Part shown: piece after piece, positions 20,488 through 26,160 of the stretch
Layout: each line of letters opens with the position of its first letter
Numbering within the stretch: position 1 is the first letter of the stretch
Sequence record: OR844650
DNA length: 64,000 nucleotides
Direction: 5' to 3' (one strand)
Source of the DNA: Escherichia phage ECO103 4-12-1
Notes under the pieces: model-generated
The model's database searches: none
Told to the model about the DNA's origin: nothing
What the model saw: only the letters and a program-made list of their open reading frames with translations
Made by a program: the position numbers and the translations under genes

Positions 20488-20637
20488 TTAAACTTCTTTC
20501 GGGTTGCGATAGGTGATAGCGTTCGGGTACATTTGTTTAATGTTATTCCATGCCTGGTTAACATTATAACCACTTGAGCGAATCAGTTGGTTACTACCGA
20601 CACCTTGAAACACTACTTCGAATAAGAATTCTTTCAT
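20488..20637 (-). CDS. hypothetical small protein (49 aa)
   Basis: own translation MKEFLFEVVFQGVGSNQL...; ATGA overlap with upstream stop; not in ORF track. Confidence 0.4.
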   Translation of the reverse strand: MKEFLFEVVFQGVGSNQLIRSSGYNVNQAWNNIKQMYPNAITYRNPKEV

Positions 20638-20807
20638 GCTTTCACCTCGCTATCTGCTTTACCTTTACGCCAGGACATTACTAATTGTTCGCGTTGCCAT
20701 AAGTCGAGTGATACAAAAAGTTTTGCGGTATCACTTTTAGGATACTCGCCATTAGTACCTAACCGATAAAATAGATCTTTCAGTACTGATAATTCTACTT
20801 GGATCAT
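20634..20807 (-). CDS. hypothetical small protein
   Basis: ORF track 20634-20909; start moved to MIQVELS after hairpin/RBS. Confidence 0.5.
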   Translation of the reverse strand: MIQVELSVLKDLFYRLGTNGEYPKSDTAKLFVSLDLWQREQLVMSWRKGKADSEVKA

Positions 20808-20893
20808 TATACTTTCCTTTTTGTTAGGAGGGGAACTATTCCCCTCTCGATATAAAACATTATACACTTTATTCAGTACTGTGCAAGTACTTT

Positions 20894-21106
20894 TTAATCT
20901 TTCAGCCAATGATCTTGGATGAATTTTTCACCGAAGCCTTGCTGCATGGATTGTAACAGTCGTTCACGGTGAGCGGCGGCAAATTGCTCAGTACTATGCG
21001 TTACACCTGGTTGATAACGTGATTCACCATTGGGGGCGATGTATTGTACATCCCACGGTTTAGCGTTAGTATCAGACCATTTACGAACGATTAGTTGACC
21101 TTGCAT
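20894..21106 (-). CDS. hypothetical protein
   Basis: ORF track 20894-21136; start moved to MQGQLIV. Confidence 0.55.
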   Translation of the reverse strand: MQGQLIVRKWSDTNAKPWDVQYIAPNGESRYQPGVTHSTEQFAAAHRERLLQSMQQGFGEKFIQDHWLKD

Positions 21107-21193
21107 TTTTCTTTCCTCAGTACTGGGGAGAATCATTTCTCCCCTTCATGTAACTTATTATACAGTACTATAATCTATTGTCCAGTACTTTTT

Positions 21194-21382
21194 TTACAGT
21201 TTATGAATCAATTCTTTATCTAAGCGATAGCGTACATTATTAATGGTAACAGCATTATTTTTAATGCTACGCTGTACTGGCCCACCAGCAATAACAAACG
21301 TTGCCTTATTACCCCGAACAATAATAGCACTTCCTGGATTGCTGTATTCATCTTGTACTAAAATACTTGATAAGTTTTCCAT
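21194..21382 (-). CDS. hypothetical protein
   Basis: ORF track; promoter cassette upstream. Confidence 0.55.
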   Translation of the reverse strand: MENLSSILVQDEYSNPGSAIIVRGNKATFVIAGGPVQRSIKNNAVTINNVRYRLDKELIHKL

Positions 21383-21463
21383 TTTTATTTCCTCTTAGTA
21401 GGGGAAGACGTTTCCCCTTGATGCAATACAGTATACACTATCTTTCAGTACTTTCAATACTTT

Positions 21464-21721
21464 TTATCTCATAGATCTATGCCAACAATTACGCGGATCT
21501 CTTTTAAAAGTACTATCATGATCCTCCTGGCAAGTTATGCAGTACTTACATCCCTTAACAGCCTGGCGGCGATTCTCAGGGATTTTATCGCCACAGTCGA
21601 GGCAATGTATCAGTGATTCTATTTGTGCGTTAATTTGCTTTCTAGCGTGGTTTACGGCGGCCTGAATCACTGCGTTAATCTCGTCTTGTTCGGCCCCGTC
21701 TTTCGCGAATCCGACAGCCAT
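21464..21721 (-). CDS. DksA/TraR-family C4 zinc-finger protein
   Basis: 'CLDCGDKIPENRRQAVKGCKYCITCQE' matches the CxxC..IPxxRR..CxxC TraR/DksA signature. Confidence 0.6.
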   Translation of the reverse strand: MAVGFAKDGAEQDEINAVIQAAVNHARKQINAQIESLIHCLDCGDKIPENRRQAVKGCKYCITCQEDHDSTFKRDPRNCWHRSMR

Positions 21722-21918
21722 TATTTTAACCTTTTTCTATCATTAATTAATGCTTTCAGTACTATACTAATAACTTGCAATGATTCATCAATAACTATAA
21801 AATTATTTTCTTTCATTAGATGATAGTTACCATTGATATTATATTCTAACGAGTACTGTTTACGTTTAATTTTTGATAATGTTTCTATTTGTTTTTGTAC
21901 TGATTTCATGCTAATCAT
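21721..21918 (-). CDS. hypothetical protein
   Basis: ORF track. Confidence 0.5.
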   Translation of the reverse strand: MISMKSVQKQIETLSKIKRKQYSLEYNINGNYHLMKENNFIVIDESLQVISIVLKALINDRKRLK

Positions 21919-21985
21919 TGGTAAACGTCCTGTAACGCATTCTAACGAGATAAACGGTTGAGTACTGACATTGTATAGGGTAATG

Positions 21986-22017
21986 AATTAAAGCCCACCA
22001 GCGTTAACCAGTGGGCT
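21986..22017 (-). terminator. terminator-like hairpin (AGCCCACCAG..CCAGTGGGCT)
   Basis: inverted repeat directly after stop of 22024-22167. Confidence 0.4.
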
Positions 22018-22023
22018 ATAATC

Positions 22024-22167
22024 TTACATCTTGCGGATAATCTTAACAGTATCTTTCACCGATTTACCGTCTTGCTGGCATTGCTCGATCATTGCGTATT
22101 GTTCTGCGGTCAGATCCTCGCCAGTTTTTGCCAGTACTGCGTCGATGAATGAATCCAGTGCGATCAT
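22024..22167 (-). CDS. hypothetical small protein (47 aa)
   Basis: own translation MIALDSFIDAVLAKTGEDL...; TTGACA-16-TATAAT promoter upstream; not in ORF track. Confidence 0.5.
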   Translation of the reverse strand: MIALDSFIDAVLAKTGEDLTAEQYAMIEQCQQDGKSVKDTVKIIRKM

Positions 22168-22266
22168 TTTATTTCTCTCTTAGGTTAAGTTAACTACTGT
22201 TGATAAAACTTATTATACAGTACTATCAAACGTTGTCAATATCTTTAATAGTACTGGTAATATATT

Positions 22267-24186: not shown

Positions 24187-24335
24187 TTTTTAGCCTGAAA
24201 GTAATGTTTAATTTGAGCGGCGGTCAGTGCACAATTACGCAGGAAGTTTTCTGTATAACTTTTGCGAGTACTGAAAGAGAATTGACCTTTGCCGTTACCG
24301 ATAGTAACATCAAACCGAGCGTTGTATTGTTTCAT
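24183..24335 (-). CDS. hypothetical small protein
   Basis: ORF track 24183-24365; start moved to MKQYNARF after hairpin/RBS. Confidence 0.5.
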   Translation of the reverse strand: MKQYNARFDVTIGNGKGQFSFSTRKSYTENFLRNCALTAAQIKHYFQAKK

Positions 24336-24416
24336 TTTGATTCTCCTGTTATTGGGGAGAATCATTTCTCCCCTTCATGTAAACTATTATACAGTACTGA
24401 AAACTAATTGCAAGTA

Positions 24417-24659
24417 TTATTTTAAACTTTGTGCGACTAATTTCGCACGGTCAATCATATACTGCCATTTTTGGATCTCTTCTGGAAGAAAACGATATTC
24501 ACCAATAACAATAGTGATACACTTTTCAGCCTGGTCAATGTATGTAGTATCAATCTCGACTTGAACGGGTACACGTTCGCCGTAATCAGTGCCAGGGATA
24601 ATACAATCATTATCATAAGTAACAGTAGTTGCAGTGTCTTTGATTAAAATGGTTTCCAT
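24417..24659 (-). CDS. hypothetical protein
   Basis: ORF track 24417-24773; start moved to METILIKD. Confidence 0.55.
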   Translation of the reverse strand: METILIKDTATTVTYDNDCIIPGTDYGERVPVQVEIDTTYIDQAEKCITIVIGEYRFLPEEIQKWQYMIDRAKLVAQSLK

Positions 24660-24729
24660 TATACTTTCCTCGTTAGGTGTAAGGGGAAAAAGTTTCCCCT
24701 CTATGTAAACAATTATACAGTACTGAAAA

Positions 24730-24939
24730 CTAATTGCAAGTACTATTTGAAAGTAAATGCTCATACGCTGCATTAACTACGTTTTCAATAACCGACTGTA
24801 CAGAAAGATTCCCCACGTCCTGGCTATAGTAGAAATCGCTTACAGTGGTGTCATCGTATGCAAATACTTTACCAGGTACGGCATCAATCACATACATATT
24901 AACCTTTAAGATGTCGATCTTATCCTGTACAGTAAGCAT
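24730..24939 (-). CDS. hypothetical protein
   Basis: ORF track. Confidence 0.5.
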   Translation of the reverse strand: MLTVQDKIDILKVNMYVIDAVPGKVFAYDDTTVSDFYYSQDVGNLSVQSVIENVVNAAYEHLLSNSTCN

Positions 24940-24944
24940 ATTAA

Positions 24945-25202
24945 TTAACCTTTTAAGTACTGGCTCAAATAGTCTTTTTGTTCTTCGGTGATTGGTGGCA
25001 TCTTCCCTAGTACTGGATTAATGATATAATCCTGATCCGCGTTCTCAGTACTAGCAACCGGACGGATACGGGCCATCGCCTGGGCTTGTTCTACGCTGTA
25101 TTGTTCGTATAGTCTGCATTCTTCCGGTGTAGGCATTACATCGCTACGCTGCATAGGTTTAATGATGCTTTCAACTTCATTCAGTACTTGATTAACGTTC
25201 AT
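24945..25202 (-). CDS. hypothetical protein
   Basis: ORF track. Confidence 0.55.
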   Translation of the reverse strand: MNVNQVLNEVESIIKPMQRSDVMPTPEECRLYEQYSVEQAQAMARIRPVASTENADQDYIINPVLGKMPPITEEQKDYLSQYLKG

Positions 25203-25253
25203 GGTATAATCCCCAATATAAGCGGCCTAAATCGACCGCTAACGATGTTTTGA

Positions 25254-25523
25254 TTAATAGGTGTATGGTTGACGTTCAAACAATGATTGCACGTTGTACG
25301 CCCCGCTTATGGGCTTTGCTGGTAAATCAATTTTATATTGTTCACGCTTAAAGATAATAAAACGGCAATTGTTTTTAACATCAAAATTGATTGAACGTTC
25401 CATGAGTTTACCATCGTGCACAAATACAAGATAACCGCTCGCTACTTGTTTTGTAGTACTGGTTGCAACCATAGACCGCCGAACATGTGTACCTGCGTCG
25501 ATTAAAGTACTGATATTTTTCAT
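25254..25523 (-). CDS. hypothetical protein
   Basis: ORF track. Confidence 0.55.
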   Translation of the reverse strand: MKNISTLIDAGTHVRRSMVATSTTKQVASGYLVFVHDGKLMERSINFDVKNNCRFIIFKREQYKIDLPAKPISGAYNVQSLFERQPYTY

Positions 25524-25603
25524 TATACGTTCCTCTTAAGTTAATTTAATTTCTTTCCCCTATGCAGACACTATATCAAAGTATCTGCATAAAGTAAAGC
25601 TAA

Positions 25604-25927
25604 TTAAAGATCTTTTTTGCGTTTAACATTCTGTACAGTACAATGCAACGGGATATTAAGATCATTGCACAAACGAGTAAGGGAGGTTTCATCAGTATTA
25701 AGCCCGTCTACTGATTCCTTTAAGAGAGATAACGCCGTTTGTTGATATGCATCTTCATAGCCATAAGTAAATGATTCAACCGCCAGATCATTCAAACCGT
25801 TATCCAGTTCAACGCTTACATGACAAGAATGATAAGTATTGCCATATGAATCAGTCCAACGTTTACCGTCAACATTGATTGCACGGATTGCAGCCAGGGA
25901 AACGGTGTTAATGATAGTTTTAGCCAT
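25604..25927 (-). CDS. hypothetical protein (paralog of 19217-19540)
   Basis: ORF track; shared motifs with 19217-19540. Confidence 0.6.
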   Translation of the reverse strand: MAKTIINTVSLAAIRAINVDGKRWTDSYGNTYHSCHVSVELDNGLNDLAVESFTYGYEDAYQQTALSLLKESVDGLNTDETSLTRLCNDLNIPLHCTVQNVKRKKDL

Positions 25928-26016
25928 TTTTGTATTCCTTAAATTAATATGTTGTCTTGATAAAATCTATTATGCCAGTACTATCAAACTATGTCAATAG
26001 TACTGTGATAATATTT

Positions 26017-26160
26017 TTACTTACTTTTTGCTTTCTTTACTGCTTCCACCTGGTCGGCCCACTCTTTACCCCATACTTGTAAATTATAATGGTACTGGCA
26101 AAGTGCAACGCCCCGCTTTAAACCAGTAATAGATTTTTTACCACATTGACAAGTTTTCAT
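26017..26160 (-). CDS. hypothetical small Cys-containing protein (47 aa)
   Basis: own translation MKTCQCGKKSITGLKRGVALCQYHY...; promoter-hairpin cassette upstream; not in ORF track. Confidence 0.5.
   Translation of the reverse strand: MKTCQCGKKSITGLKRGVALCQYHYNLQVWGKEWADQVEAVKKAKSK

Follow-up and report, generated by a model that had tools for sequence, protein, structure and literature searches.

The window analysed here, 64,000 nucleotides of Escherichia phage ECO103 4-12-1 (sequence record OR844650), carries between positions 20,488 and 26,160 six open reading frames (ORFs) of fewer than 60 amino acids (aa), named here ORF1 to ORF6. These ORFs are real, conserved protein-coding genes under purifying selection, and we consider it very probable that they are translated genes of an early array of Asteriusvirus, organized in promoter/stem-loop cassettes within a terminal-repeat-like region and encoding, most likely, non-structural accessory or host-takeover proteins. 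Judging from its matches, the source phage belongs to the 121Q/PBECO4 group of jumbo coliphages in the genus Asteriusvirus, whose genomes measure about 350 kb: the 6.2-kb interval compared finds matches in 56 phage records, every one a jumbo phage of Enterobacteriaceae. The closest is Escherichia phage WPEC3, which aligns in eight pieces covering 69% of the interval at 95.5% identity; next come CMSTMSU, CRJP21, slurp01, 121Q and PBECO4. The minus strand is the coding strand for all genes between 19 and 27.5 kb, and both the ORF listing and re-translation place the six ORFs on it, with the coordinates and translations that the original prediction had given (Table 1). Two more sub-60-aa genes of the same interval, here up1 and up5, were absent from its list because upstream in-frame codons lengthen their mechanical ORFs.

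The homologous region was taken from ten Asteriusvirus genomes (loci L001-L010), with each ORF placed by tblastn. In every relative locus covering it (7-10 genomes), each of the six keeps its ATG, its stop codon and its length; ORF1 and up1 are intact in 9 loci each, and ORF2 in 10. The proteins of the relatives are 90-100% identical, with equal length, order and coupling, except for ORF4, which falls to 62-74% outside the WPEC3 lineage and has length variants of 47, 45, 44 and 39 aa, arising solely from in-frame indels. Synonymous divergence among the ten genomes amounts to 10-30%, and the ORF boundaries are unchanged. ORF6 and ORF3 are also found in unrelated coliphages of 140-155 kb, at 84-89% and 68-85% identity, respectively, which argues for selection across lineages. 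All six ORFs are thus conserved, and this check, one of those that the original prediction had named, leaves its claim standing.

Variable sites at codon positions 1, 2 and 3 number 9/8/23 in ORF1, 2/1/11 in ORF2, 2/0/11 in ORF3, 9/8/26 in ORF4, 4/2/8 in ORF5 and 3/2/16 in ORF6. The pooled ratios of nonsynonymous to synonymous substitution rates (dN/dS) for ORF1 to ORF6 are 0.14, 0.04, 0.08, 0.22, 0.22 and 0.09, and those of up1 and up5 are 0.27 and 0.07. The ratio of nonsynonymous to synonymous differences (pN/pS) ranges from 0.04 to 0.26 over the six (ORF1 0.16, ORF2 0.04, ORF4 0.26, ORF5 0.24, ORF6 0.10). When this ratio was calculated in all six frames as a control, the claimed frame gave the lowest value for every ORF, with a pooled value of 0.17, against 0.31 for the antisense frame sharing the third positions and 1.3-2.2 for the remaining frames.

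The original prediction had further assigned to most of these ORFs either a promoter of their own or tight coupling to a neighbour, and both kinds of arrangement are present: ORF2, ORF3 and ORF6 follow promoters, and ORF1, ORF5 and ORF4 are coupled. A consensus scan returned 42 promoter-like sites, compared with 22.6 +/- 4.4 in shuffled sequences, and of the 16 sites matching at 10/12 or better, 14 lie immediately upstream of a gene and on the minus strand; between 19 and 26.6 kb, 16 cassette-type sigma-70-like promoters are listed. Most promoters are followed, in this order, by nGTTTACATC, a GGGG(A)n...(T)nCCCC stem-loop, a Shine-Dalgarno (SD) sequence and the ATG. About 25 such GGGG..CCCC hairpins exist, confined to 13.8-32.5 kb of the window and located between the -10 box and the SD; the cassettes of ORF2 and ORF3 are without this stem. 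The array would accordingly be read as a series of repeated units, each made of a strong host sigma-70-type promoter, a stem-loop placed just downstream of the -10 box, where the 5' untranslated region would begin, an SD and a short ORF, and all of them would be transcribed by host RNA polymerase as soon as the DNA has entered the cell.

Within such an array, ORF2, ORF3 and ORF6 would be expressed as single-gene cassettes, and ORF1, in a two-gene operon, and ORF5 and ORF4, in a three-gene operon, by translational coupling, with a hairpin terminator ending each operon. An ATGA overlap joins the start of ORF1, and likewise that of ORF5, to the stop codon of the upstream gene, and the ATG of ORF4 abuts the stop codon of ORF5 (TAAATG). 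SD-like sites are GAGGTGA for ORF1, GGTGA for ORF4 and just CAGGCT for ORF5, the translation of which probably relies on coupling. The terminator-like hairpins that follow ORF1 and ORF4 are paralogues in which two base pairs differ, each by a compensatory change (A-T to G-C in one, G-C to T-A in the other), and the one after ORF1 also holds the promoter-like sequence TTGACT-17-TATTAT. On the minus strand at 21993-22016, 8 nt past the ORF2 stop, there is a GC-rich hairpin (GCCCAC...GTGGGC, then TTTAATT); it is a possible terminator, which a simple scan does not report.

The position of this array corresponds to the terminal repeat of a relative. Phage fEgEco12 has a direct terminal repeat of 20,993 bp, confirmed by restriction digests (PMC13070987). 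When the first 24 kb of its genome are aligned to the window, position 1, the left physical end, falls at 34,247 and the end of the repeat at about 12,970; therefore, the window spans the genome terminus or the repeat junction of the assembly. The matches of ORF5 and ORF6 in the vB_Ec-M-J record are labelled 'Direct Terminal Repeats', and the up5 homolog of Klebsiella phage Muenster is inside a predicted 20-kb terminal repeat. The GC content is 38.8% inside the repeat-equivalent region, as opposed to 32-35% outside. In fEgEco12, 14 of the 56 genes of the repeat encode fewer than 60 aa, and the DNA outside it is organized in long overlapping operons without intergenic promoters.

Some points weigh against the early-array reading. 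The region at about 12,970-34,247 matches a terminal repeat of about 21 kb, and we infer from relatives that it is repeated in this genome as well. The GGGG..CCCC stem-loops carry no U-tract, and terminator, stabiliser and protein-binding roles are all compatible with them. The coding signal of ORF5 comes from just 14 variable sites, behind a weak SD of its own. Finally, the literature searched holds no RNA sequencing, ribosome profiling or proteomics for the Asteriusvirus group, and sequence, family and structure searches found no functional homolog for any of the six ORFs. Studies of promoters, transcriptomes or small proteins in Asteriusvirus did not turn up in the literature searches either.

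The gene content of the array varies among relatives by whole genes. Those at 21194-21382, 23263-23730 and 24417-24659 are present, absent or replaced, and the ends of high-scoring segment pairs cluster at 21180-99, 21420-39, 23260-79, 23720-39, 24420-39 and 24680-99, that is, at the edges of these three genes. This clustering at gene edges is the informative result; the strict test for breakpoints in intergenic DNA (43 of 113 against 28% expected, p=0.013) is less so, its p-value being modest because many breakpoints fall a few bases inside start or stop codons. The repeated cassettes would thus double as recombination points, where whole genes are gained, lost and swapped between relatives. 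In fEgEco12, a GNAT acetyltransferase block stands in place of window 21193-21425.

In a possible, if distinctly less likely, alternative, the ORFs are real genes but represent mobile selfish cargo ('morons' or ORFans), or are aimed at competing phages or host defence rather than at host physiology. The variable cassettes do not include the six small ORFs: unlike those three, the six are in every Asteriusvirus genome examined, and the strong purifying selection acting on them argues for a role useful to the phage. Between an anti-defence role and a takeover role, the present data do not separate.

It is quite improbable that leader or spacer RNA accounts for the ORFs, or for a part of them, as frames left open by chance, with ORF5 in particular as a T-rich spacer between up5 and ORF4 that reads as hydrophobic residues by accident and is kept for the RNA or for spacing. 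The region does contain 133 mechanical ORFs of at least 20 aa, PHANOTATE-type annotations of relatives call clearly spurious ORFs of 30-33 aa nearby, ORF5 has a weak SD and few variable sites, and T-rich DNA yields hydrophobic codons. However, the ATG, stop and length of all six are kept and pN/pS is lowest in the claimed frame, the replacements in ORF5 are conservative and its two flanks are ATGA and TAAATG junctions, all ORF4 indels are multiples of three, and the folds predicted for ORF3 and ORF6 are confident. That the small ORFs are pieces of once-larger genes split by frameshifts or stops is more improbable still, even though up5-ORF5-ORF4 and up1-ORF1 abut or overlap without spacer, as split genes do, and the up5 homolog of rV5 is the C-terminal end of a longer annotated ORF of 94 aa, since the boundaries are the same in ten genomes despite their synonymous divergence, matches to the PHROG families are full-length at the same sizes, each unit is under purifying selection of its own, and protein homology searches found no longer homolog spanning two ORFs.

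The original prediction had called these genes unannotated, a word that public data do not support: all six are annotated coding sequences (CDS) in public records of close relatives. Phage fEgEco12 carries a CDS for each (g015, g022, g023, g026, g027 and g036), WPEC3 carries five within the fetched locus (CDS024, 033, 034, 039 and 040), and the phAPEC6 orthologs are gp508c, gp515c, gp516c, gp519c, gp520c and gp526c, with gp520c as the 29-aa peptide. ORF5 is annotated in phAPEC6, WPEC3, fEgEco12, Salmonella phage SD-15_S21 and SHEFM2K; annotation across relatives is uneven because the older records of 121Q, PBECO4 and UB leave it out. Orthologs are labelled 'hypothetical protein' throughout, with the sole exception of fEgEco12 g027, the ORF2 ortholog (L011 10703-10846), a small, acidic, early protein whose label 'tail fiber protein' is almost certainly a mistake. 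The same repeat of fEgEco12 has g10 annotated as 'protein spackle' and g044 as 'serine/threonine-protein kinase PRP4'. Four of the ORFs match PHROG families from end to end, namely ORF1 (37188; E-value 3e-40, 49/49 profile positions), ORF2 (34103; 8e-38, 47/47), ORF3 (9374; 9e-37, 59/59) and ORF4 (29913; 1e-21, 45/45), and the same search gave no match for ORF5 or ORF6. ORF1 and ORF3 are present in NCBI nr and UniRef as hypothetical proteins, and searches of Pfam, NCBIfam and PDB sequences with the ORFs returned nothing above threshold.

The cassette organization closely resembles the promoter-early stem-loops (PeSLs) of the T4-type phages RB49/phi1, PST and nt-1 (Arbiol et al. 2010, PMC2839356; Comeau et al. 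2014, PMC4122927), which extend to the SD and start codon of a small ORFan, sit in hyperplastic regions and mediate modular gene shuffling (PMC2839356, PMC4122927). The features shared encompass a near-consensus sigma-70 promoter with an adjacent GGGG...CCCC stem-loop and the SD and start of a small ORF, the dense repetition of this unit in a hyperplastic region of small ORFans, and whole-gene indels and replacements bounded by the repeats. The setting is different, being an Asteriusvirus jumbo phage instead of a member of Tevenvirinae, with the array in a region matching a terminal repeat of about 21 kb, and the promoters here bear a lineage-specific AGTACT signature. For PeSLs, stem-loops that terminate or attenuate transcription and recombination that yields mini-circles are further traits (PMC2839356), which the array here may or may not share. 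Orthologs of the genes are already deposited for a known genus, the type of regulatory cassette is also already described, and no new kind of system is represented.

A parallel to the location of this array is offered by coliphage T5, the pre-early genes of which lie in its terminal repeat. SPO1's host-takeover module, according to PMC6873191, consists mostly of small genes that lie in the terminal repeat and carry strong early promoters and ribosome-binding sites. The array shares with this module small genes in a repeat-matching region, with strong promoters and ribosome-binding sites, in single genes and short operons, and it differs in that its genes have no sequence homology to SPO1 or T5 genes.

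The genes of jumbo phages are mostly of unknown function, and no others are dropped or mis-called as often as those below 60 aa. What results here is a clean gene map with correct starts for six plus two genes in a repeat-matching region, which makes a shortlist for toxicity, anti-defence and superinfection-exclusion screens.

The products of the array would comprise an inner-membrane helix (ORF5), a basic peptide (ORF4), two acidic proteins (ORF2 and ORF3), a CCCH protein (ORF6) and a small basic protein (ORF1). ORF5, MKTLAYYSSALVGALIAALLVTYLFFMVI, is the hydrophobic single-helix peptide of 29 aa that had been singled out beforehand, a description that the conserved sequence bears out: its grand average of hydropathy is 1.78, Kyte-Doolittle means over 19 residues run from 1.35 to 2.69, and the one charged residue is K2. 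It would form a single transmembrane helix, presumably inserted in the inner membrane, with a small-xxx-small face at S9-G13-A17. Among the phage records searched by tblastn, it occurs in 30, at 90-100% identity and invariably with 29 codons, and its replacements are conservative (L/M, LV/VI, T/S, K/R). Small single-pass membrane peptides include KdpF (29 aa), AcrZ and MgtS, as well as the type I toxins Hok, TisB and Ibs. ORF5 is like them in its 29 aa, its one hydrophobic helix and its single N-terminal lysine, and unlike them in having no known sequence similarity to them and in being encoded in a coupled operon, not opposite an antisense RNA; the consensus scan found no antisense promoter of at least 10/12 opposite ORF5.

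Homologs of up5, the first gene of this operon, are found in 161 phage records, at 56-59% identity in RaK2-like Klebsiella phages and 47-49% in rV5-like phages. Six Klebsiella Alcyoneusvirus genomes have, after the up5 homolog, an intact hydrophobic ORF of 38 codons (MIVKVLTTIIQYCIITGVAFVLAVAIVFSTVIVLGNIS), at 1351-1466 of L012 (RaK2) and in the equivalent place of L013 and L015-L018. This ORF is joined by overlaps to the stop of the gene before it (TAATG or TTGA) and to the start of the gene after it (ATGA), and it is annotated only in the RefSeq record of K64-1 (gp442). It shares its position with ORF5, with no sequence relation. Its coding status is not established, because its DNA also holds a promoter-like TTGACA-17-TATTAT and the comparison of RaK2 with Muenster gives 10 replacement and 5 silent changes. 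In rV5, no such hydrophobic peptide follows the up5 homolog. We regard as speculative, and rather unlikely, the proposal that up5-ORF5-ORF4 is a conserved early effector module, combining a soluble basic protein of about 50 aa with a coupled inner-membrane micro-peptide, with a parallel arrangement in Alcyoneusvirus (RaK2, K64-1, Muenster and others). If true, two genera would share a 'small protein plus membrane micro-peptide' system directed at a function of the host envelope, such as superinfection exclusion or the blocking of a transporter or a division protein.

ORF6 was detected in 41 phage records, including the coliphages of 140-155 kb, and a profile search gathered a family of at least 176 representative clusters (E<=1e-3), mostly of 50-130 aa. 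C4, C6, C21 and H24 are invariant in 38 diverse members, and S10, G13, L14, Y23 and W34 nearly so. The AlphaFold2 model has a predicted local distance difference test score (pLDDT) of 80.7. These features point to a large uncharacterised family of CCCH zinc fingers, the members of which would bind zinc. ORF6 has no Pfam or NCBIfam match above cut-off, ten longer members of the family are without a Pfam domain, and, against the PDB, the best Foldseek hit (E ~9) is not significant and the sequence search is empty. A likeness of its GLCxxHY motif to the zinc fingers on actinophage HNH endonucleases could not be confirmed and is not claimed. Regarding its start, the longest mechanical ORF runs over 26017-26190 (57 aa), and its ten extra codons, MVLPDNEETN, are a read-through of the 5' stem-loop GGGGAGAAATGGTTCTCCC. 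The ATG at 26160, chosen in the original prediction, is the better one: it is preceded by GAGGAAACTAAT, follows GAGGAAA and matches the N-termini of the family.

ORF3 has a confidently predicted beta4-alpha fold, with four beta-strands and a C-terminal helix. A possible candidate for it is the AP2/integrase-type DNA-binding fold, defined by a 3-4-stranded antiparallel sheet, a C-terminal helix against which it packs and a basic DNA-binding face; the isoelectric point (pI) of ORF3 is 4.3. ORF1, restricted to Asteriusvirus, is a small basic protein of unknown fold. None of the six has an ortholog among the 62 virion proteins found by mass spectrometry in phAPEC6. A neighbouring gene at 19628-19810 encodes 60 aa (MAKCTICKKE...HTAC) with a CxxC...HxxC pattern, a putative second small zinc-binding protein of the array.

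Table 1. Features of the small-gene array, in window coordinates
Feature	Position	Strand	Description
ORF1	20488..20637	-	49 aa, pI 9.3; second of two genes in operon; SD GAGGTGA
up1	20634..20807	-	57 aa; first gene of ORF1 operon; start after stem-loop and AAGGAAA
ORF2	22024..22167	-	47 aa, acidic, pI 4.7; monocistronic
ORF3	22267..22446	-	59 aa, acidic, pI 4.3; single-gene cassette
ORF4	23953..24096	-	47 aa, lysine-rich, pI 10.5; last of three genes in operon
ORF5	24097..24186	-	29-aa hydrophobic peptide, predicted single helix; middle gene of up5-ORF5-ORF4 operon
up5	24183..24335	-	50-aa basic protein; first gene of up5-ORF5-ORF4 operon
ORF6	26017..26160	-	47-aa CCCH zinc-finger-like protein (C4, C6, C21, H24)
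up1-ORF1 promoter	20886-20859	-	TTGCAC-16-TATAAT
up1-ORF1 5' stem-loop	20830-20844	-	GGGGAATAGTTCCCC
ORF2 promoter	22239-22212	-	TTGACA-16-TATAAT, 12/12
ORF3 promoter	22510-22482	-	TTGACA-17-CATAAT with upstream TG, 11/12
up5-ORF5-ORF4 promoter	24413-24386	-	TTGCAA-16-TATAAT, 10/12
up5-ORF5-ORF4 5' stem-loop	24354-24373	-	GGGGAGAAATGATTCTCCCC
ORF6 promoter	26238-26211	-	TTGCAA-16-TATAAT, 10/12
ORF6 5' stem-loop	26180-26198	-	GGGGAGAAATGGTTCTCCC
Terminator-like hairpin	20449..20476	-	right after ORF1 stop; 12 pairs, T-rich tail; in all loci
Terminator-like hairpin	23923..23950	-	after ORF4 stop; 12 pairs, T-rich tail; paralogue of 20449-20476
12-mer copies	14385-14400, 17132-17147, 20404-20419, 23873-23888, ~30737-30748	-	motif match
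12-mer copies	28514-28525, 30680-30691, 32930-32941, 33146-33157	+	motif match

Apart from the cassettes, the region contains a 12-mer, CCCA[CTG]NGGGTGC, with nine copies in the repeat-equivalent region; the other 43 kb lack it (about 0.1 expected by chance). Each copy is located 25-28 nt downstream of the -10 box of a strong promoter, and four minus-strand copies come after operon terminators, the hairpin of which carries TTGACT-17-TATTAT. The 12-mer is kept in all 11 Asteriusvirus loci and has no Rfam match. Candidate explanations are a family of small RNAs and a site bound by a protein. RNAalifold supports, over the 12-mer region, just a mini-hairpin of 4 bp, CCC-AYN-GGG, and a structured RNA is not claimed; for the CCCAYNGGGTGC promoter-proximal modules, single-copy folding z-scores are not significant, except for one convergent pair. 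At 28458-28600, the copy resembles a transcript of about 100 nt without an ORF, which would be directed opposite to the genes and stop at a bidirectional terminator, and the 30-33-aa ORFs that relatives annotate over copies of the 12-mer are probably spurious. Rfam gave no credible match in window 13-33 kb, and ARAGORN found no tRNA.

AGTACT, a palindromic hexamer, is found 268 times in the window (4.2 per kb, where composition predicts 0.34 per kb) and reaches 6.6 per kb in 12970-34247. In the promoters, its copies are placed close to -40 and in the part of the spacer that immediately precedes the -10 box.

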